A stretch of 9,795 nt of DNA from a virus. Taxonomy: Duplodnaviria > Heunggongvirae > Uroviricota > Caudoviricetes. A program made the position numbers and the translations under genes. Where the stretch lies: positions 1 to 9,795 of IMG/VR virus record IMGVR_UViG_2711768052_000007; one strand, 5' to 3'. The notes beneath the pieces are model-generated. The model was not told the DNA's origin, made no database searches, and saw only the letters and a program-made list of their open reading frames with translations. Shown piece after piece: positions 1 to 9,795 of the stretch (position 1 is its first letter; each line of letters starts with the position of its first letter).

Positions 1-564
1 TCAACGACTGCGCTTAGCGTGGCGCTCCCAGTTTTCTTGCTTCGCCTGCGCCGTTTTACGTAGTGCGACGTAACACGCCCCGCTGCCGCCATGATGCGGT
101 AGCGCAGTGCAATATGCCTGAACATCATCAAATTCGGTCAGCCAGCGCGCCACATAGCTGCGGACAATATTGGCATGCGATTTATCATCCCGTCCTTTGC
201 CATGAATAATCAGCACGTTACGCAAACCATCAGCCATGGCTTGTTGAATGAAACTGAACATCATTTTGCGGCACTCTTCCACCGGCTGGCGCAAAAGATT
301 CAGGCTCGCCTGTTGCGGATATTTACCACTGCGCAGCTTATCCAGCACCCCATGTTGCAACCCTTCCCGCCGAAACTCCAGCGGCTGACTTAGTGGGATG
401 ATGTCGAGAAATCCGGTGGTGAGGAAATTATCAAGCTGCAGCGTGTCGATACGCTGCGGCGCACGTTGGTTACGCGTTGGATGCCAGTGGACATCGGTAG
501 CACGTTTCAGCGGCTGGACATCTTCCATGGCGTCAAGAAACAGCGATTTGTCGTCAAGGTTCAT
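1..564 (-). CDS. smrA: Smr-domain protein SmrA (YdaL), probable DNA endonuclease
   Basis: Complete 187-aa ORF (ATG at 564-562, stop at 3-1). The translation matches E. coli SmrA/YdaL as I recall it, including length. SD-like GGAGGATG lies upstream at about 568-575. Confidence 0.85.
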   Translation of the reverse strand: MNLDDKSLFLDAMEDVQPLKRATDVHWHPTRNQRAPQRIDTLQLDNFLTTGFLDIIPLSQPLEFRREGLQHGVLDKLRSGKYPQQASLNLLRQPVEECRKMMFSFIQQAMADGLRNVLIIHGKGRDDKSHANIVRSYVARWLTEFDDVQAYCTALPHHGGSGACYVALRKTAQAKQENWERHAKRSR

Positions 565-1297
565 GTTACATCCTCCCGCAATTAAGAGCGCGATATGATA
601 ACCAGACCGGGTCGGTCCAACAACGTATTACCCAAAATTCCAGTAATAAGTTCCAAATATTGCCGATATTTTAAGCAAAATGCTTATGCATGATTATTCA
701 TTCACGATATTTATAATTAAATGCGCATAACTTATTGAATTTAACCAACAAACATCGCTGCAAATAACGTTAAAAATCGCAAATTAACTACACCATTAAC
801 TACACCGTTCGGTGCACTGTATGCAACAATGCGGAACAAATAGACACAAGCGACGGGCTATACCGTTATCATTTTCCGGCTATCCGCCATGAAGCTGGTG
901 GATGATCACGGATAAACCGTTATGGAAGTCCCCATATCGGCATCATGCCCACCAGCGAGATTAGTTATCTGGTTGCTGATGGGAGGCTGACGAACCTCGA
1001 TGCTAGGGTGCGCAAAACTAGTGAGACCTTTTTTCTCTGCAACAGGCCCATAATTCGCGTTTTCTTTGTCTGCCGTAAGGTGGGGGATTTTTGGCGGATC
1101 CAGCAATGGCGCGGATTTTGTGATTTTTTATAGATAGACCTCATCTATCAATCCCGTGCACACCTTCCCAAAAAAAGTTTTCGAACCTGCGGCGATGAGA
1201 ACAAGGGTAGGCGGGCGGTCCCATAAGCAATGGAGTGTAGGGATTCCGATCCCCCTGGGGGTATTAAACGCCCCACCCTATTTAAATACCGTCTTTT

Positions 1298-1339
1298 TTG
1301 TCACTGGTTGTCACTCTCCGTCACGGTATGTCACCACAA
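1298..1339. repeat. Four GTCAC-containing units phased exactly every 10 bp (candidate integrase arm-type or Xis/AlpA-type binding array)
   Basis: GTCAC occurs at 1300, 1310, 1320 and 1330 (ttGTCACtgg, ttGTCACtct, ccGTCACggt, atGTCACcac), directly 3' of the last island gene. It resembles the lambda Int arm-type consensus (A/C)AGTCACTAT, recalled from memory. Confidence 0.4.
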
Positions 1340-1340
1340 G

Positions 1341-1625
1341 TTAACGTCGTAACCGTTCCGGCTTCTTCCACTGGTAAGTAATTTTTTCTTTCTCCCGGTA
1401 CATCTCTACGCGGCGACGGTATGACAACATCTCCAGAACTCTGGTTCGTATATCGCGCATATCCACGCCGTTAAGCTCAATACCATCACGGCGCATCACC
1501 TCAGCCACTACACGCGCGTAATTTTCGGCTATCACGCTGTCCGGCTGCGTGGCCTCCTGTTTGCCTGTTGTCTGGCTGGCTCCGGTAACGCGGCGAATTA
1601 TTTTGAGCATTTCGGCTTCGGTCAT
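1341..1625 (-). CDS. Hypothetical protein (94 aa) downstream of the small-terminase-like gene
   Basis: ORF with internal ATG at 1625-1623 preceded by GGAGG with about 8 nt spacing. The longer track ORF (to 1715) has no RBS. I do not recognise a family. Confidence 0.5.
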   Translation of the reverse strand: MTEAEMLKIIRRVTGASQTTGKQEATQPDSVIAENYARVVAEVMRRDGIELNGVDMRDIRTRVLEMLSYRRRVEMYREKEKITYQWKKPERLRR

Positions 1626-1770
1626 GGTTATGGCCTCCGTGGTGATGGGAAACAATGCCGTAATTGTGGCGGGTCCTTCTTGGAAAATGAAATACCGGGG
1701 TAGCCATACGCGCAATTCTTAACTGTTTATGAAAATTTTTCGAGTTCCACTCCCGGTTTTTTTATGACCT

Positions 1771-1791
1771 AACCAATTGATTAAATTGGTT
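1771..1791. promoter_or_regulatory. Perfect 8-bp inverted repeat AACCAATT-N5-AATTGGTT (operator-like)
   Basis: Read directly from the sequence, in the 215-bp gap between the terS-like stop (1840) and the next gene start (1625). Confidence 0.3.
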
Positions 1792-1839
1792 TTAAATATC
1801 AAATCAACCGGAAGTCTGACCAGTTGAGGGAAATGATGA

Positions 1840-2301
1840 TCAGGTGTCGTTTTGCCTGATTAATTTACGCTTCTTTTTGTTTTCATTTGTGTGTTTTTTA
1901 AGGCGTTTTAATGTCAGTTCTCGCCCGATCTCAATTCCCTGCGCTCTGCCCCTAGCCTGTGCGATCTCGTCCGGTGAATAACCGTAAATTTCCAGACCTT
2001 TATTAAATTTTTTTTCGTACTCTTGTTTGTCTTCTTCTTCACCAACCATACTCAACATGATTTCACGCGAATGCATAATGCAATCAAGCGGATGAAGTTC
2101 GCCAGTCATACCCAGTTCTTTGAGTCCTTCCTGTCCTCTTACCCAAAAAAGAACATGTCCTAACTGGTAGCGCCCCGGCTTTCCTTTATCTCCTTCAATG
2201 AATGGCAAACCGCGTTTAGTCCATGCCCTGACAGTTGTCCTGTCTACTCCAAATTGATCTGCTATTTCCTGCTGGCTTAAGAAAAATTCTTTTTCACTCA
2301 T
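1840..2301 (-). CDS. Terminase small subunit-like packaging protein (Nu1-type N-terminal winged-HTH, divergent C-terminus)
   Basis: The N-terminus (LSQQEIADQFGVDRTTVRAWTKRGLPFIEGDKGKPGRY) aligns with lambda Nu1 (KKQLADIFGASIRTIQNWQEQGMPVLRGGGKGNEVLY). The track ORF begins at a TTG (2337); the ATG at 2301-2299 (MSEKEFF) matches the Nu1 N-terminus better. The gene lies immediately downstream of a cos-like site. Confidence 0.7.
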   Translation of the reverse strand: MSEKEFFLSQQEIADQFGVDRTTVRAWTKRGLPFIEGDKGKPGRYQLGHVLFWVRGQEGLKELGMTGELHPLDCIMHSREIMLSMVGEEEDKQEYEKKFNKGLEIYGYSPDEIAQARGRAQGIEIGRELTLKRLKKHTNENKKKRKLIRQNDT

Positions 2302-2379
2302 AATGTTACCAATAATTACTGGTTGAATATTAATCAAGTGGTGGTGGTGTACCCTTTCCCGGAAAGCGTCATAAATAGC

Positions 2380-2440
2380 GCTTTTTTGCGCGTCTGCCGC
2401 CCCGTAACCTTTCGGATCGCCGGAAAGGACCCGTAAAAAA
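2380..2440 (-). other. Lambda-type cos site (cosQ-proximal sequence, cosN-like 12-mer, start of cosB)
   Basis: Minus strand reads ACGGGTCCTTTCCGGCGATCCGAAAGGTTACG|GGGCGGCAGACG|CGC...GCGCTATTTATGA. The lambda genome ends and start, as I recall them, read ...ACGGGTCCTTTCCGGTGATCCGACAGGTTACG|GGGCGGCGACCT|CGCGGGTTTTCGCTATTTATGA. The cosN-like 12-mer is at 2391-2402 (plus coordinates). Confidence 0.7.
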
Positions 2441-2456
2441 GCCGGATTTCTCCGGC
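2435..2456 (-). terminator. Putative intrinsic terminator after the 137-aa gene, overlapping the cosQ-proximal region
   Basis: On the minus strand, hairpin GCCGGA-gaaa-TCCGGC is followed by TTTTTT, 7 bp after the stop at 2463. It may instead be part of cos architecture. Confidence 0.35.
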
Positions 2457-2462
2457 CTTGTC

Positions 2463-2876
2463 TCAGATGGTTTTCAGTATGCGATCGATGTCGTCGTCAT
2501 CACCCGGATTTCTTCCATCGTATTCCATGCCACCTGACACTGCTTTGGGGCTGTGCATATCCATAAAGTTTTCAAAGGCTGCAGTAAGCTCCGGCGGAAC
2601 CTTCGGGCGTTCCTGCTCTATGGTCATGTTCAGGATGTCTCTTGCCCCTTCAACATCGATACAAGGAACATTCGCCATTGCACGCAACATCGGCTGATAT
2701 TCGGCTGCTTCATGAAGCGCCATAATCGCATCAGCGCGCGGCTTGTCCTGTTCTTCCAGTTTGTTCAATCGGTGTATGGCTTCGTAGGTTGATAAACCTC
2801 TGTCAGCCATTGCCCGCGCTTCGGCCTTAAATTTACTCGCCAGCGGTAGCGCCATGATCTCTTCATTGATTGCCAT
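2463..2876 (-). CDS. Hypothetical protein (137 aa, acidic C-terminus) between the decoration gene and cos
   Basis: ORF with ATG at 2876-2874 preceded by AGGGGGGA. The track ORF extends to 2930 but that extension overlaps the upstream gene and has no RBS. Family not recognised. Confidence 0.5.
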   Translation of the reverse strand: MAINEEIMALPLASKFKAEARAMADRGLSTYEAIHRLNKLEEQDKPRADAIMALHEAAEYQPMLRAMANVPCIDVEGARDILNMTIEQERPKVPPELTAAFENFMDMHSPKAVSGGMEYDGRNPGDDDDIDRILKTI

Positions 2877-2889
2877 CGTTCCCCCCTGC

Positions 2890-3225
2890 TTATCGTGCCA
2901 GCGGCTGAACGGATACGCCAGAACCCGCAAAGGCAGCGCATTTTTTCGCGTCAGTATCGACGCTCTCGGGCCAGTTAACGACGGCGATATTGAATATCCC
3001 CGTCTTGTAACACTGTGCAGATTTTTGTTTTGCCGTGTCCAGTGGGTAGGAGGTCAGATAAATGGCCTTGCCTGACTCCTGACCGCCCCACGCCTTAAAC
3101 TCGCCGTTCTCCGTCATCATCAGCGGGGTAAGCTCGGGAATAACTCCGGCATCAGCGGCAAAGTGTACCAGCGTAGTGGAAACCTGCTGTGTACCGGACA
3201 ATAATTCAACATATGGAACGCCCAT
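2890..3225 (-). CDS. Head decoration protein (lambda gpD-like)
   Basis: 111 aa. TPLMMTENGEFKAWGG...CYKTGIFNIAVVNWPES...KKCAAFAG aligns with lambda D (TPLMLDTSSRKLVAWDG...FYKSGTFRYEDVLWPEA...KRTAFAG). ATG at 3225 is preceded by GGGGGA. Confidence 0.8.
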   Translation of the reverse strand: MGVPYVELLSGTQQVSTTLVHFAADAGVIPELTPLMMTENGEFKAWGGQESGKAIYLTSYPLDTAKQKSAQCYKTGIFNIAVVNWPESVDTDAKKCAAFAGSGVSVQPLAR

Positions 3226-3236
3226 AAAATCCCCCG

Positions 3237-4292
3237 TTAACCAATTTTTACGGTAACAAATTTGCGGATATCTGCCGGAACCGGCTGTGGTGCGCTGTGC
3301 GTCTGCACGTATTCAATCGACGGATCGCCGCCCTCAATCCAGTTTTTCGGGTAGTACATGTTTCGCGTTGCGCCAGTTCTTACCGCTTCCTGATCCATAA
3401 TCGCGCCATAGGCCACCAGTCCTTTATTGCTGGTATTACCCAGAACAAGCAAATCAGGCTCAAGGAAATATTTTTCCGTTCCGTCGCCGTCAGTGTATTT
3501 ACCGGAATAAACGATAAGGGCCAGATCGCCAAGATAGCCTTTAAAGCTCACCACTTCGCCCAGGTTTTTACACGCCAGCTCTGCGGCGGATTCTGAACCA
3601 CGGGAAAGATCGTACAGTTCACGAAATTTTTTAAAGCTGCGTAACGTGCGCCATACCTCAACGCCCATAATCATGACGTTGGCGGGGCAACCTGCCTGAT
3701 CGGTGTACAGTTCGATGTCATAAATTGGATCGTGCGTTTCCTTGTCAGCCTCTGACCACTTTTTACCTTGTCCCTGCGTAATGATGTTTTTAGTCGGGAT
3801 TTTCCAGTCGATTTCGTATCGATTTATACCTTCGCCTTCAATGATGTTTTTCCCGGTCGTGACTGCATTCACCGCCAGCCATTCCACACGCGCTTTAATG
3901 GAATTTACCTGGCGGCGCATGTTGCCCGTAATCAGGCGCATACGACGGTATGTAGGGTCGTTAAGCTGTGCTGGATCTTCACCAGCCATGCGTATGATGG
4001 TTTTTGATGGATCGATTTCGTGTTTGGGTTTCATGTAGCCAGGGCGGATAGTGCTTGTTTCGTACCCTTTATCTCGCTGAACCTGGCTACCCACCATAGG
4101 CGAACAAAACGCCGACATGGTGACTTCTTCAATATCCAGGGTATCTAACATGATGTCCTGCGTGTTGAAGGTCGCCACGTTCGGGAAAAACAGCGACGTA
4201 AACAGCGGACTAAATTTAAAATCTGGAATATCCTGGCGATTCAGATATGTAAAAAGCTGATGCGTGTTAAGCGCCTGCGCTTTGTCTGTCAT
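3237..4292 (-). CDS. Major capsid protein (lambda gpE-like)
   Basis: 351 aa with conserved blocks shared with lambda E: FKFSPLF, PGYMKPKHE, EDPAQLNDPTYRRMR, VVSFKGYLGDLALIVYSGKY, VLGNT, YPKNW, GDP, SAP. The start ATG overlaps the upstream stop (ATGA). Confidence 0.9.
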   Translation of the reverse strand: MTDKAQALNTHQLFTYLNRQDIPDFKFSPLFTSLFFPNVATFNTQDIMLDTLDIEEVTMSAFCSPMVGSQVQRDKGYETSTIRPGYMKPKHEIDPSKTIIRMAGEDPAQLNDPTYRRMRLITGNMRRQVNSIKARVEWLAVNAVTTGKNIIEGEGINRYEIDWKIPTKNIITQGQGKKWSEADKETHDPIYDIELYTDQAGCPANVMIMGVEVWRTLRSFKKFRELYDLSRGSESAAELACKNLGEVVSFKGYLGDLALIVYSGKYTDGDGTEKYFLEPDLLVLGNTSNKGLVAYGAIMDQEAVRTGATRNMYYPKNWIEGGDPSIEYVQTHSAPQPVPADIRKFVTVKIG

Positions 4293-4498
4293 TGCTCACC
4301 CCCATGAGTCTGATTCATGCCAAGCGCAGCGCGTAAATGGCTGCGTACCATCCAACCAACTGACGGCTTCACCATGCACAACGGATCAAGGCCGACTTTT
4401 TTGCCTGCTTCTGCGTTCTCCTCAAAGCGCGCATTAAGTGCCGCGATAATATCGGGGCTGATGTATACGGATACACCGCCCAGCTTCTGTGTTCCCAT
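4289..4498 (-). CDS. Hypothetical small protein (69 aa), translationally coupled to the capsid gene
   Basis: ATG at 4498-4496 is preceded by AGAGGA, and the stop overlaps the capsid ATG. The upstream part of the track ORF (to 4564) has no RBS. Confidence 0.4.
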   Translation of the reverse strand: MGTQKLGGVSVYISPDIIAALNARFEENAEAGKKVGLDPLCMVKPSVGWMVRSHLRAALGMNQTHGGEQ

Positions 4499-4550
4499 AA
4501 ATGAAATTCCTCTTTGACTAAAAAACAAACATAACGAAAAATCAGTCATG

Positions 4551-4580
4551 ATTTTAATCATCATTGCATTTTTTGCAATG
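4551..4580 (-). promoter_or_regulatory. Putative sigma70-type promoter for the head/packaging operon with an overlapping inverted repeat
   Basis: On the minus strand, -35 TTGCAA (4578-4573), 16-bp spacer, -10 TAAAAT (4556-4551). The 7-bp inverted repeat CATTGCA-N5-TGCAATG (4562-4580) overlaps the -35 and spacer. Confidence 0.3.
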
Positions 4581-4675
4581 CAATTGACTATTATTGCAAA
4601 TCATGAAAGTATAATTCCGCGGTTTTACCTTGTATCGTAGAGTTGTTAGCATCAATCACGTTAACGGCATGAAAT

Positions 4676-4709
4676 CCCCCCGGAACCTCATCCCGGGGGG
4701 ATTTTTTTT
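4676..4709 (+). terminator. Strong plus-strand intrinsic terminator
   Basis: 8-bp GC stem CCCCCCGG/CCGGGGGG (4676-4683 / 4693-4700) with a 9-nt loop, followed by A and T8 (4702-4709). Confidence 0.6.
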
Positions 4710-4713
4710 GCGC

Positions 4714-4741
4714 ACAAAAAAGCCGTGAAAAATCCCGGCTT
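4714..4741 (-). terminator. Minus-strand intrinsic terminator after the SSB-like gene
   Basis: On the minus strand, hairpin AAGCCG-N10-CGGCTT is followed by TTTTTT. It lies about 15 bp downstream of the alternative-frame TAA stop at 4758-4756. Confidence 0.45.
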
Positions 4742-4755
4742 CTGTCACTCGTTGC

Positions 4756-5122
4756 TTAAAACGGTATGTTATCCCCGTACGGATCATCATTTCCCGCCTG
4801 TTGTTTTGCCCTGTTCAGTGCGTCAGTAGCCTGGCCCTGTTGACCTTTTTTGCCGCCCGGGCGCGCCGTTCTGGCCTGTCCACTGGCTTACCTGCATGTT
4901 ACCCGCCACGCTCACAAGTTCGCCTTTCTGGTGCTTTGCCAGTGCGTCGGCCTGTCTGCCAAACGCCAGGACGGATAACCACATCGTCGCCGTTCCGTCA
5001 TCTGCCTGGCTGCACGGCAGGGGAACCGCCATACTCGCCATCGCCATTTGTGTCCCTTTGCTGGTGGTCTTTAACTGCGGGTCAGCCACCAGCCGCCCGT
5101 AAGCCGCTATCTGTGCTGTCAT
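4756..5122 (-). CDS. SSB-like single-stranded DNA-binding protein with an apparent +1 frameshift near an A6 tract
   Basis: The track ORF (4823..5122) shows an SSB-like OB-fold pattern (GRLVADPQL..., WLSVLAFGRQADALAKHQKGELVSVAGNMQVSQWTGQNG versus E. coli SSB [40 protein letters not shown]). The +1 frame downstream of the A6 run (4846-4851) continues to ...AGNDDPYGDNIPF and stops at 4758-4756. IPF is the hallmark C-terminal tip of bacterial SSBs. Confidence 0.5.
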
Positions 5123-5370
5123 GATTCCACCTCTCCGGTTTTAACATTGATGGTTGTCACCTGTTCCGCTTCGGCAATCTCCCGTTCTGTCAGCGTGGCA
5201 AAGTTTGCTGCCGCCGTGGTCATGAATGCGCTTATCAGTTCGGGGTGTGCTTTCGCGTATCCTTCCCCGGCATGGCGGTCTATCGTTCTGATTGCCACCT
5301 TTAAGGCGTGCTCTGTCATGTCTAATGCGCGATATTTTGGCGCTGTCTTATCTCTGGTTTTTCTGGTCAT
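5119..5370 (-). CDS. Hypothetical protein (83 aa) between the origin and the SSB-like gene
   Basis: ORF with ATG at 5370. Its stop overlaps the SSB-like ATG (ATGA). No family recognised. Confidence 0.45.
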   Translation of the reverse strand: MTRKTRDKTAPKYRALDMTEHALKVAIRTIDRHAGEGYAKAHPELISAFMTTAAANFATLTEREIAEAEQVTTINVKTGEVES

Positions 5371-5379
5371 TCCTCACTG

Positions 5380-5573
5380 CTCCCCACTTTTACTACCCAC
5401 TTTTTGAAATTACCCAACGTCTCCCCACTTCTTTTTTTTGTGATTCTAACGTGATGTTTTTCAATGTATTTTTTATTCCCCACTTTTTGGGGTATATACA
5501 GGTGGGAAAGTGGGGAATCGCGTTTCAATTTTGTTAAATTCCCCATACTCCCCACTTTTACTACCCACTTTTT
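5380..5573. repeat. Iteron-type origin of replication candidate
   Basis: An identical 26-bp direct repeat CTCCCCACTTTTACTACCCACTTTTT occurs at 5380-5405 and 5548-5573. The short motif TCCCCACTT occurs at 5381, 5422, 5477 and 5549, with an inverted copy AAGTGGGGA at 5508-5516. An AT-rich spacer lies at 5431-5476. The region is immediately 3' of the Rep-type gene. Confidence 0.6.
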
Positions 5574-6987
5574 ACAGTGGGCGCACGTCATCACCGTCAA
5601 TAGCAATAACGCCATCACCTTCCAGCTTGTACAGCCAGCGCCGGAAGTGTTTCATCTCATACCCCAGCTTTTTCATATCATCGCGCAACAACGGAATTGT
5701 GCATTTATCGCCGCGCTGTGTGCGTGAACGGATACAGCCCCATAGCGCGGCATGATTCTCCGTCTTGTTCCCGGCTTCCTCGATGCGCTCCAGTTCAACG
5801 GGTGGGCGCGGTTTATCCACAACCACCAGCGACGTGATTAACTCCTTGTCAGCGTCGGTAAAAAGCTCCACCACACGTAAATCGTATGCAGCCTCTTTCA
5901 GTTCCTCCGCGTCCTTCATTTTGGTGCAGGAGATAACCAGGGCTTCACTGTCTGCACCTTCACGGCGAATACGGTATTCAGCGTCCAGAGATGCACGAAA
6001 TGCACTGGAACCACGCGCCCCCTTTGTTTCATCCTTGCCGGAATGGTGAACCACCAGCACCGTGGCCCCTGTGCGGCGTTTCAGTTCGTCACATCCACGG
6101 ATAAACGCCCCCATATCCCGCGCGTCATTTTCATCATTACCGCCAAAGCAACGCGCCAGCGTATCAAGAATAATCATGCGTACCGGTTTACCCGTTTCCC
6201 GTTCAACCTGGCGGGAAGCGATGACCATTTCATCAACATCAAGCGGGACTGCCGGAAAAATCGGGCGGTTTACCAGGTACAGATTTTCCACCCGTTCATC
6301 ATTAACGATTTCCCATGCCTTGATACGGCGGGGGACACCAATGCCACCTTCACCGACAACATACATCACCGAACCATGCGCCACCCTGCGGCCTCCCCAG
6401 TGACGGCCAGTGGCAACATGACACGCCCAGGAACACGCGAGGAACGATTTATAGGAACCGCTCGCGCCGTATGTGCTGCACAATGAATTAGCCGGAATCA
6501 CGCCCTTAACGACATAATCAAGCTGTGTGTCGTACCCTGCAGATCCAATGCTCATTGGTAGCGTGGTTTTTCGCTGGCTGTATTGCTCGTCAGTAAGTAT
6601 TTCCCCGCGCTCTGCCTGTTCGCGGATCCGTTGCAGGTAGTCGTGCCAGTTCTCCAGCTTCTGGCTGTGCATTCCATCAGGGTAATAATTCGCATCCCGT
6701 ACACCTGCCGCCGCCAGCTTTTGCCCGATAGCATTAATATTTGACGGCTTGATGTGGCCTGCCTTGTACAGCCGGACACAATAGCGACCATCGTCGATGA
6801 TTTTCAGGTCTGCCAGTTCGTCAAGCTGGCTGTCTCCAAGCCATACGGGTGGCACGTTGTCGCCAGCAAGTCGCCCGTCCTGTTCCTGCCATTGTTTCGC
6901 GTGCGCCCAGGCATCACTACCCGCAAAAATAATGACTTCGGTCATTTTGTCGTGTGGCTGTTTTTTTAAGTTCGGTGCCAGTTTCAT
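5572..6987 (-). CDS. Replication initiator / helicase-type ATPase (RecA-like P-loop NTPase with C-terminal winged-helix)
   Basis: 471 aa with a Walker A-like YGASGSYKSF, then MIILDTLAR and VLVVHHSGKDETKG blocks typical of RepA/DnaB-like satellite and plasmid replication ATPases. The C-terminus looks like a DNA-binding domain. The start ATG overlaps the upstream stop (ATGA). Confidence 0.75.
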   Translation of the reverse strand: MKLAPNLKKQPHDKMTEVIIFAGSDAWAHAKQWQEQDGRLAGDNVPPVWLGDSQLDELADLKIIDDGRYCVRLYKAGHIKPSNINAIGQKLAAAGVRDANYYPDGMHSQKLENWHDYLQRIREQAERGEILTDEQYSQRKTTLPMSIGSAGYDTQLDYVVKGVIPANSLCSTYGASGSYKSFLACSWACHVATGRHWGGRRVAHGSVMYVVGEGGIGVPRRIKAWEIVNDERVENLYLVNRPIFPAVPLDVDEMVIASRQVERETGKPVRMIILDTLARCFGGNDENDARDMGAFIRGCDELKRRTGATVLVVHHSGKDETKGARGSSAFRASLDAEYRIRREGADSEALVISCTKMKDAEELKEAAYDLRVVELFTDADKELITSLVVVDKPRPPVELERIEEAGNKTENHAALWGCIRSRTQRGDKCTIPLLRDDMKKLGYEMKHFRRWLYKLEGDGVIAIDGDDVRPL

Positions 6988-7283
6988 TTTTTACCCCTGA
7001 ATGCGTTAATCATGTTTTTCATTTTCTGAATATTTGCCCGTGCCTTTGCGTTGCTGGTGGGCTGTTTGCGTGGTGTGGCCTGTATCAGTGAAAAATCACG
7101 CCGGAACTGATAAACAGGCATCACGCAGTCATAACCGTACCCATCACGGCGGTAAGTAACGCACCGTCCCGCCACGCTTTTAATCGTTACCGTGCCGCCG
7201 TAGTTATCCCGGAAAATATCGCCGGGGCGGATTTCAGGCCGAGCGGGGCCGCTGGCAGTAAAGCCAGAATTTTTCTTTTTCAT
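6984..7283 (-). CDS. Hypothetical protein (99 aa, basic C-terminal tail), translationally coupled to the rep gene
   Basis: ATG at 7283 is preceded by AGAGGA. No family recognised. Confidence 0.5.
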   Translation of the reverse strand: MKKKNSGFTASGPARPEIRPGDIFRDNYGGTVTIKSVAGRCVTYRRDGYGYDCVMPVYQFRRDFSLIQATPRKQPTSNAKARANIQKMKNMINAFRGKK

Positions 7284-7288
7284 GGTTT

Positions 7289-7498
7289 TTATTCCTCTGC
7301 GCGGGTCTTGTCGTGTATTTCCATAACCGCGTTTAATTCATCAATAACCGGGGTTAACAGAGTGCTGAAAGCAGAAAATAAATCCCCCCCCCGTTCGGCA
7401 TGAACTTCGGTTAATTTAATTAATACCGCTTTCATTTCCAGTGCCCGGTTTAATGCATTCTCAGAATGAATAAGAACATCGAAAGGGATTTTATCCAT
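7289..7498 (-). CDS. Hypothetical small helical protein (69 aa) containing a G10 homopolymer
   Basis: ATG at 7498 overlaps the upstream gene end by 8 nt. A run of 10 C (plus strand 7383-7392) lies inside the ORF. No family recognised. Confidence 0.4.
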   Translation of the reverse strand: MDKIPFDVLIHSENALNRALEMKAVLIKLTEVHAERGGDLFSAFSTLLTPVIDELNAVMEIHDKTRAEE

Positions 7499-7957
7499 GG
7501 CTTACATCCTCCGTGAATTTTCTTCTGTACCGTGCCTCTGCCACATATTCAGCATAGTCCGACGCAATAATAAGAATATCGTTGCCGGTTCCTGAATGTT
7601 CAGCGGTTCCAATTAAAAAACATGCGGCCTTTATCAGGTCATTAACAGCCAGCAACGCATCGCCTGTATCATCCGGTGCGCCATCAAATTCCTGTTTCAG
7701 GGCATTAAAACGATCATCACGCATAACCCCCCCCCATTTTCACAATCAGCAATCAGGATGGCTTTGGCCTCATTCAGTGCCATATCAGCGGTAAGCTGTG
7801 CGTAGGCCAGCGAATGGGGGATTATTGCCCCTGTATACTCCGGCTCTCTGGTAATGTGTTTTTCTGCGGTTGCTGCCGTGCATGAAATATCAATCAGCGC
7901 GTGCATCAGCGTAGTGAGCGCGGCGGCTGCTGCGTCCGGACGTGGGTTATTGCACAT
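7491..7957 (-). pseudogene. Hypothetical protein split into two ORFs at a G9 homopolymer (frameshifted or phase-variable)
   Basis: ATG at 7957-7955 has a strong RBS (AGGAGGT, 5-nt spacer). The frame runs to a stop at 7699-7697 just after the G9 tract (plus-strand C9 at 7727-7735). The 77-aa ORF 7491..7724 continues in the +1 frame, and one extra G would fuse both into about 157 aa. Confidence 0.4.
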
Positions 7958-8249
7958 GGCGCACCTCCTGACGAATACGGGCGGCGAATACAGCGACACA
8001 ACCGGACGGGCAACGGTTACGCGCTTCGCGTTCTGTCCATGCGGTGACGTGGATGATTTGAGATTCTCCGGCACTCAGTGCCAGAAAACGCCACACAAAG
8101 GCCGTTTGTGTGTGCGCTAGGCGTGGGGTATGCTGTGTTCCAGCCATAATCGTTACCTCGTTTAACGGTTTGGTTAGAAGCCCCGTTACTGCTCCAACAG
8201 TGCGGGGCTTCGTCGTTTCAATTGCTGAATTGCATGTATCAGCCCTTGT

Positions 8250-8316
8250 GGTATTCAGATTACATTTTGGTGAATACCATTTCAAGTCTTTTTTGGTATT
8301 CACTTTTGTATTACAC
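8250..8316. promoter_or_regulatory. Operator-like repeats GGTATTCA(C) upstream of the ribbon-helix-helix gene
   Basis: GGTATTCA at 8250-8257; a perfect 9-bp inverted pair GTGAATACC (8270-8278) and GGTATTCAC (8295-8303); a degenerate copy GTATTACAC at 8308-8316. A candidate -10 TATTAAT lies at 8327-8333. Confidence 0.35.
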
Positions 8317-8346
8317 TGCATCCCGTTATTAATCGGAGGTGCAAAC

Positions 8347-8652
8347 ATGTCCACGAGTTCTGTTAACAATAAGTCACAGCAACTGAATGCCAGATTTCCA
8401 CATGAAGTAGTGAGTGGCATTGAGGCATCCCTACAGCCAGGGGAAACTAAAGCGAATTTTATAGTTACGGCTGTACGCGGTGAGATCGCCCGCCGCCAGG
8501 CAGAAGGAAGCGGAGAAAATCCCCTGGTTTCTTCGCTCGATGCACTGGCGCAGGTGGAAAAAATCGGAGTCAAAGCAGCCGAGGAGATCGGGCAACTCGT
8601 CACCGTCGCGCGTGAAGAACTCCAGCGCCGCAAGGCCAAAGAGCAGGAATAG
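8347..8652 (+). CDS. Ribbon-helix-helix (Arc/CopG-like) DNA-binding protein, putative island regulator
   Basis: 101 aa with a strong RBS (GGAGGTG, 5-nt spacer). The N-terminus (QQLNARFPHEVVSGIEASL...ANFIVTAVRGEIARR) fits the beta-strand plus two-helix RHH pattern. It is the only convincing plus-strand gene in the island. Confidence 0.55.
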   Translation: MSTSSVNNKSQQLNARFPHEVVSGIEASLQPGETKANFIVTAVRGEIARRQAEGSGENPLVSSLDALAQVEKIGVKAAEEIGQLVTVAREELQRRKAKEQE

Positions 8653-8656
8653 CCCC

Positions 8657-8675
8657 ACCGGAATTTTTTTCCGGT
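8657..8675. terminator. Hairpin between convergent genes (possible bidirectional terminator)
   Basis: ACCGGAA-TTTTT-TTCCGGT lies 5 bp after the RHH stop and abuts an out-of-frame minus-strand TAA. There is no long U-tract on either side. Confidence 0.3.
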
Positions 8676-9143
8676 TACGCTTTGCCCACCAGCCGCAAAT
8701 GTGGCATTGTTGGTGATGCGTTCAAGTTTGATTTGCCGTAATACCCACTGGCGACCCTTTGCGGTCGCCTTTGTTTTGCCTGTTATCCGGCAATTGTGGC
8801 GCTTCGCCACACGGTTGATATAATCCCACTGCTCAGATTCATTTTTTGCGCAGTAGGTTAATTGTTCGCAAGGGCGCTCCGGCAACGGGGCGCTTTTTGT
8901 TTTTATTAGTTTGTAGAAAACTGACTCAGAGATAATGCTCATATTCTGATTGCCGTCAGGGGGGTAAGTTAAATTTACTCCCTTTTCATCAAGCATCTGC
9001 AACGCTCTGGCGTTAATAATATTGGTTTCACTCCCGCCAATAAGGCCGGAAATAACCGGAATAATTTCAGCGAAATTTTGCAGATTCTGGTTTTCAGGCC
9101 GAACGAAGCCCCGCCCCTGTACAGGCGTATATCCAGTATTCAT
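8675..9143 (-). CDS. Hypothetical protein with a weak Bro-N/Ant-like motif; C-terminal frame unresolved
   Basis: ATG at 9143. The first 150 residues or so look protein-like, and ISESVFYKLIKTKSAP resembles the SESGLYxLIxRSRKPEA motif of Bro-N/Ant-type proteins. The in-frame ORF has no stop until 7947 and runs antisense through the RHH gene; a TAA in the +1 frame at 8677-8675 is the likely true end. Confidence 0.4.
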
Positions 9144-9195
9144 GGTTAAATCTCTGTATTAGTGGATGGGTGGCGGCTGTGTGCCGCCAGCCTGA

Positions 9196-9384
9196 TTAGT
9201 GAACTGCCTCGCGGCTGTCCTTCCATGCCAGAACTTCGGATAAAGACCAGCCAACGGAACGACCACCGAGTTTACGCCGTGATGGGAATTGTCCAGTCTT
9301 CTCCAGGCGATACCGACATGAGCGGCTCAGGCCTGTAAGTTGCTGACATTCTTTTTCACGTATAAAGCGATCTGTGCTTAACAC
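9196..9384 (-). CDS. alpA: AlpA-family (Xis-like HTH) transcriptional regulator
   Basis: The C-terminal 62 aa (VLSTDRFIREKECQQLTGLSRSCRYRLEKTGQFPSRRKLGGRSVGWSLSEVLAWKDSRE) matches the AlpA pattern. A GTG start at 9384-9382 is preceded by AAGGGGGA. The track ORF's upstream 36 codons are low-complexity and lack an RBS. Confidence 0.7.
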   Translation of the reverse strand: MLSTDRFIREKECQQLTGLSRSCRYRLEKTGQFPSRRKLGGRSVGWSLSEVLAWKDSREAVH

Positions 9385-9680
9385 AATTCCCCCTTTGTTG
9401 TTTCTTAAAGAGTCATTGGGTGGATTATTGGGTTGGGTTGTGTCGGATTGTGTCAGGGTGTTTATGGAATGGCAAACACTGGTGGCGGTCATTTTACAGA
9501 AGTGGGGGTAGTGAGAATAAAAATCCTTTTAATTCATTATGATGTAAAGGCATAAAATTCTGTTTTTACGCCTTTTTTACATGTTTTTAAGAGTGATTCG
9601 CCAATGTACAAAAAGCCAGTAAAACGACTGAAAATCAACTTTTTAGGGTGTCAGTCAGATGATAATCAAGTTTGTTCCAG

Positions 9681-9730
9681 ATTGTTCGCCGTTGTTCGTC
9701 GTGGTGTCTCGTTGTTTCACGTTGTGTCCG
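9681..9730. repeat. Five degenerate direct repeats phased every 10 bp (candidate recombination or regulatory protein binding array)
   Basis: attgttcgcc / gttgttcgtc / gtggtgtctc / gttgtttcac / gttgtgtccg, in non-coding DNA about 300 bp to the right of alpA. All three minus-strand frames hit stops within 60 nt of the window end, so no integrase 3' end is present. Confidence 0.35.
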
Positions 9731-9795
9731 TTCTAAAAAATCGCAAAAAAAATTATATTTCTCTGGCTATTGGCAGTGTGGTTACGTTTTCGTGA

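Follow-up and report, generated by a model that had tools for sequence, protein, structure and literature searches.

An SSB gene disrupted by a 56-bp deletion between short direct repeats in an EcCICFT073-type chromosomal island of Escherichia coli

The SSB gene of an E. coli phage-inducible chromosomal island (PICI) lacks, in the DNA analysed here, exactly 56 bp relative to its intact alleles. The window, i.e. the whole stretch of 9,795 nucleotides under analysis (positions 1 to 9,795 of the IMG/VR record IMGVR_UViG_2711768052_000007), carries an island of the EcCICFT073 type inserted next to smrA, and the SSB gene within it has become a pseudogene or, in the most favourable case, a crippled allele. 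With a probability of about 0.93, a microhomology-flanked deletion of the replication-slippage type turned the SSB gene of this satellite into an ordinary pseudogene. Gene family, island type and kind of lesion are all already known, and the intact gene is named in RefSeq. Specialists will find nothing surprising here; the use of the result lies in the corrected cause, a deletion and not a homopolymer slip. The proper label for the locus is SSB pseudogene by 56-bp deletion, in place of hypothetical 99-aa protein, homopolymer error or recoding site. A literature search retrieved no paper on the SSB gene of E. coli PICIs.

EcCICFT073 is the prototype Gram-negative PICI and has a size of about 10 kb. 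In its original description (Fillol-Salom et al. 2018, PMC6092414), a head decoration protein and a putative capsid protein are among the encoded products. The likeness of the window to this island comprises an integrase, an AlpA protein, an own replication module and the putative capsid and decoration proteins (c1499/c1500). Integrase (PF00589), AlpA (PF05930) and the RepA-family helicase (PF13481) occur in this order on the source contig, as in a PICI, and the PHROG matches agree with the assignment. The capsid and decoration proteins affiliate with PF03864 (Phage_cap_E, 2.5e-50) and PF02924 (HDPD, 1e-14), similar to c1499 and c1500. At the DNA level, its similarity to the islands of strains resembling CFT073 is only partial, with 70% coverage at 92%.

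Along the minus strand, the gene order starts with the integrase, whose 3' end lies at the window edge, an AlpA-type regulator, a divergent YlcI/YnfO-like gene and an Icd-like gene. It continues with several small genes, DUF4222, the gene of the 471-aa RepA-family helicase, the 83-aa gene, the SSB gene and hairpins, and ends with a 69-aa gene, a lambda-E-like major capsid protein and a lambda-D-like head decoration protein. The decoration gene is followed by a protein weakly similar to the small terminase subunit and then by the host gene smrA. The RepA-family gene and the SSB gene form the replication module of the island. The TGA stop codon of the 83-aa gene overlaps the ATG of the SSB gene (ATGA), an arrangement that would be expected for translational coupling. 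The coordinates are compiled in Table 1.

Table 1 Features of the SSB locus and its surroundings, with one disrupted allele of another island
Feature	Position	Strand	Description
RepA-family helicase/primase-like replication gene	5572..6987	-	471 aa; PF13481 AAA_25, phrog_2850, primase/helicase PHROGs, RefSeq annotation of relatives
Gene upstream of SSB	5119..5370	-	83 aa, phrog_1231, function unknown
Remnant ORF of the satellite SSB gene	4823..5122	-	99 aa plus stop; stop codon 4823-4825
Deletion junction	4864..4869	-	Sole surviving copy of the ACGGCG direct repeat
Stranded C-terminal coding region, ancestral (+1) frame	4756..4869	-	T104-F140 of the intact protein plus TAA stop at 4756-4758
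A6 tract	4846..4851	-	Ancestral frame: Lys110-Lys111; no difference in length from intact alleles
Hairpin plus T run	about 4710..4748	-	3' of the ancestral stop; -15.4 kcal/mol, z = -1.95
STEC383 disrupted SSB allele	L002:3129-3475 (NZ_CP091026.1)		76-bp deletion

The initial annotation had described a minus-strand SSB-like frame that ends at 4823 with ...GRQKRSTGPGY, and translation of the minus strand gives the same result. The product starts with MTAQIAAYGRLVADPQL and has the C-terminal end SQWTGQNGAPGRQKRSTGPGY. Its residues 1-86 are native OB-fold sequence, while residues 87-99 (APGRQKRSTGPGY) are out-of-frame read-through. The similarity to the SSB family proved genuine: residues 5-87 of the 99-aa protein match the Pfam family PF00436 with E = 1e-13 and 51.7 bits, well above its gathering threshold of 26 bits. 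The match extends over positions 4-89 of the 104 model positions, versus 4-101 for the intact protein, and the OB domain of the window protein is incomplete in its C-terminal strand region. SSB chains from the PDB match the intact allele with E-values down to 2e-10.

The intact satellite SSB has the OB fold in common with the chromosomal SSB of E. coli (26% identity over 100 residues) and likewise ends in ...IPF as bacterial SSBs do. It is shorter, with 140 aa versus 178 aa, and has a short linker; its tip reads GDNIPF where that of the E. coli protein reads DDDIPF. The remnant retains the aromatic residues that align with W54, F60 and W88 of E. coli SSB.

The ...IPF tip of bacterial SSBs recruits the partner proteins of SSB. 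The window allele codes for this tip solely in the +1 frame, as had been noted at the outset, and translation bears out both the ending ...GDNIPF and the stop codon. From 4869 onwards the frame is open to 4758 and reads TARPGGKKGQQGQATDALNRAKQQAGNDDPYGDNIPF, a linker followed by the tip. All 37 residues are identical to the C-terminus of the two intact 140-aa alleles from strains ETEC1730 and C5, a similarity far beyond chance. The nucleotide differences located 3' of the junction, three to ETEC1730 and four to C5, are all synonymous in the ancestral frame; the tail was thus maintained by purifying selection in its original frame up to recent times. By the same comparison, the deletion is recent, with a tail that has so far escaped decay.

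The 56-bp difference emerged from several comparisons. A megablast search with a 601-bp query against 5,426 complete E. coli genomes yielded matches in 1,666 genomes, and the best matches all consisted of two pieces which together spanned about 655 bp for the 601-bp query. This two-piece pattern raised the suspicion of missing sequence in the window rather than of a 1-nt slip. In the alignment with the intact ETEC1730 allele, a single gap of 56 columns appears with ACGGCG at its flanks, and a scripted placement of the gap returned 56 bp with a positional ambiguity of 6 bases, equal to the repeat ACGGCG. The intact gene contains two copies of this repeat 56 bp apart, and the additional bases in the intact alleles are ACGGCGAAACGCGGCAGGGCTGGCAGGTTATCGCAGACAGCGTAATCAGTGCGCGG. 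A query of 80 nt with the junction at its centre matched the complete E. coli genomes only as two pieces with a span of 136 bp, i.e. 80 + 56. An insertion in the relatives in place of a deletion in the window was considered and rejected, since the longer form prevails, across hundreds of genomes, and completes the Pfam SSB model.

The intact alleles encode proteins of 140-141 aa ending in IPF, and the suggestion that the gene was originally longer holds. At least 80% of the 423-bp intact gene is covered in 973 genomes, and within an evenly spaced sample of 60 records all matches of full coverage were single pieces of 423-426 bp. The allele of ETEC1730 is represented in RefSeq as WP_000126638.1 (140 aa, ending ...PYGDNIPF) and that of C5 as WP_047627439.1. 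Both are the same gene as the one in the window: residues 1-86 are shared except for H65Q (and also K63R relative to C5), and the gene position is alike, with the RepA-family helicase and then a small gene preceding it. The window allele is distinguished by the loss of the 56 bp, which comprises E87-R103 together with a frame change of 2 nt, and by its untranslated tail. Among the intact alleles examined, none ends at the early stop, and all have a single frame with the IPF tail.

Since 56 mod 3 equals 2, the frame is shifted by 2 nt, native G86 is followed by 13 unrelated residues and the ancestral frame from T104 onwards has become the +1 frame. The +1-frame similarity had been thought to begin after the A6 tract; it starts at 4869, 13 nt upstream of the tract, because the ancestral frame resumes at the junction. 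Inactivation by a frameshift, one of the three explanations offered initially, was correct insofar as a frame break disrupted the gene, but the lesion is the 56-bp deletion at 4864-4869 and not a change in the A6 tract. Lost with the deletion are the 17 codons E87-R103 (ETRQGWQVIADSVISAR), the last part of the OB domain. In pairwise alignments the deleted residues lie opposite the DRYTTEVVVN region of E. coli SSB and the last OB strand region of Thermus SSB. The product of the window allele therefore differs from a functional SSB in two defining respects, the absence of a complete OB domain and of an in-frame tip, and for this reason the gene is to be filed as an SSB pseudogene and not as an SSB gene.

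Mechanistically, replication slippage or a microhomology-mediated event between the two ACGGCG direct repeats would have removed the codons. Translation now proceeds from G86 through the unrelated residues to the early stop. Linker and GDNIPF tip are still intact yet untranslated, and the island presumably relies on the host's own essential SSB. The start codon and the overlap with the upstream gene are still present in the remnant ORF, and because start and coupling are kept, a truncated protein may still be made. This 99-aa product is most likely non-functional, as linker, IPF tip and the final section of the OB barrel are all missing from it.

An error of assembly or sequencing would leave the real gene intact; it would consist in a wrong count of the A's at 4846-4851 or in an assembler collapse behind the 56-bp gap. 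The window does stem from a draft short-read assembly: it is 100% identical to a part of the 208-kb contig CXXR01000010.1 of the NCBI assembly GCA_001268205.1. However, the exact 99-aa protein and the identical junction are also present on a contig of the independent ENA metagenome assembly ERZ926329 (run ERR2359771), which deviates from the window over 9.3 kb by three differences. One of these, T/G at 4916, falls inside the SSB gene; the others are an indel at 5439 and G/A at 3086. The deletion call is drawn from these two assemblies; their origin in different projects and their slightly different sequences argue strongly for a real inherited allele and against an assembly error. A repeat of 6 bp is, moreover, far too short for an assembler collapse. 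The six A's reported initially are indeed there, and a run of the same length occurs in both intact alleles (ETEC1730 and C5) as well as in STEC383 and the metagenome copy (L004). A miscount of this run, which the initial annotation had proposed as a cause, was rejected, as intact and broken alleles alike have A6 and as an altered run would not restore the OB domain. Overall, an artefact is very improbable. The deletion allele is rare: the junction was absent from the 5,426 complete E. coli genomes (megablast and the 80-nt junction query) and, in exact-pattern scans, from the JGI metagenome contigs and from the GTDB species representatives (one genome per species).

The two other explanations take the allele to be alive. 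In one form, a low-level +1 shift at CAA-AAA-AGG supplies the incomplete OB domain with the IPF tip; in the other, the fragment is active without a tip. We give a live allele in either form only a slim chance. Its product would disturb the SSB networks of the host or of a helper phage, which would be a selectable effect for a satellite. Recoding in the strict sense, by a +1 ribosomal shift or by transcriptional slippage on A6, would join the OB remnant to the IPF tip in a functional short SSB. The sequence offers some ground for this idea: in the zero frame the tract reads CAA AAA AGG, a Lys-tRNA that has paired with AAA can move downstream by one base and pair with AAA again, and no stop interrupts the +1 frame over the stretch required. 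AGG is a rare codon in E. coli, and rare AGG/AGA codons promote +1 shifts. On the other hand, a tract of six A's is short for efficient transcriptional slippage. In the intact orthologues A6 encodes Lys-Lys within one continuous frame, hence nothing selected for a shift site, and the two-frame layout stems from a rare, recent deletion, which two independent assemblies carry but none of the 5,426 complete genomes. Programmed frameshifts of the prfB or dnaX type have a conserved two-frame layout with a shift site, whereas the orthologues are single-frame genes of 423-426 bp. Furthermore, a shifted product would still be devoid of E87-R103, and because these codons are deleted even a perfect +1 shift could not yield a normal SSB. 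A +1 shift, whether required or programmed, accordingly finds no support, and of all readings considered recoding is the one to which we assign the least weight.

A new role of the 99-aa protein would consist in a tip-less OB fragment that poisons the SSB assemblies of the host or the helper phage, or that evades an SSB-sensing defence. The retained start, the upstream overlap and the 86 native residues including the aromatics aligned with W54, F60 and W88 are compatible with such a role, as is the persistence of the allele into two samples that differ by three changes. The allele is nonetheless very rare, its out-of-frame tail is arbitrary and its OB barrel is incomplete. Other independent disruptive alleles, namely a 76-bp deletion in STEC383 and a 120-aa form, have unrelated break points, which fits decay and not design. 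A new role thus appears highly unlikely, and a pseudogene generated by the 56-bp deletion remains the preferred reading.

The SSB gene of STEC383 (L1P12_RS08430), classified as 'frameshifted' in RefSeq, is the same gene in a closely related island. Similar to the window allele, it was broken by a deletion between short direct repeats. The event was independent of that in the window, as 76 bp were lost between GACAGGCC repeats located further upstream in the OB domain. The 120-aa protein P0014 (HGT6649719.1) falls into the same 90% cluster and ends with GGKKASRARLLTH (tail ...ARPGGKKASRARLLTH), which is consistent with the loss of one base at the A6/GG site (A6 to A5, or GG to G). As judged from the protein, another allele thus has the type of frameshift first suspected for the window. 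Altogether the SSB gene has three independent disruptive alleles, the 56-bp deletion, the 76-bp deletion and the 1-nt frameshift, the last one read from the protein. Their number hints that the satellite can do without an SSB of its own, at least in the integrated state of the island, a small and testable point regarding the replication functions that satellites really need.

Also assigned to the same 90%-identity cluster are proteins of 83-92 aa (P0005-P0010), encoded by the upstream neighbour of SSB (5119-5370), that do not align with SSB. Their joint placement is probably a clustering artefact, perhaps caused by fused gene calls. The indel at 5439 relative to the metagenome copy affects a single base in the interval that separates the helicase gene from the 83-aa gene; an overlapping small gene call changes with it from 82 to 68 aa.

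Downstream of the SSB gene, the initial annotation had placed a minus-strand terminator just after the ancestral stop. A hairpin with a T run was found there (about 4710-4748) and is likely the terminator of the replication-module transcript, although the support is modest and a simple consensus terminator scan made no call at this site. From reading the sequence, the miss is attributed to a loop that exceeds the 3-8 nt limit of the scan. Back to back with it lies a strong GC-rich hairpin at 4673-4703, CCCCCCGG...CCGGGGGG, present on both strands (-27.7 kcal/mol on the minus strand, z = -3.2). T8 follows it on the plus strand, where it was called terminator-like. Together, the two hairpins resemble a bidirectional terminator that separates the replication module from the capsid module. 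Another terminator-like match on the plus strand, at 4822-4844, has an 8-pair stem followed by CTTTTTTGCC and runs antisense to the tail of the SSB gene. The T's of this match correspond to the A6 tract on the opposite strand, and the match is probably due to chance, since such matches are no commoner in the region than in shuffled sequence.

On the minus strand, an open frame of 398 codons (7947-9143) runs antisense through the YlcI/YnfO-like gene (8347-8652, plus strand). In PHROGs only its last 70-85 residues, which are Icd-like, have homologues; the frame was set aside on this ground, and its long upstream extension is probably non-coding.

In the island of C5 (NZ_CP010122.1, L005:3515-5540), the intact SSB gene has other neighbours. 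The upstream gene there encodes 257 aa, and genes of the ProQ/FinO and PerC families replace the capsid and decoration genes, with TerS present. The occurrence of the SSB gene among different neighbours therefore indicates that it moves between satellite backbones as a module.
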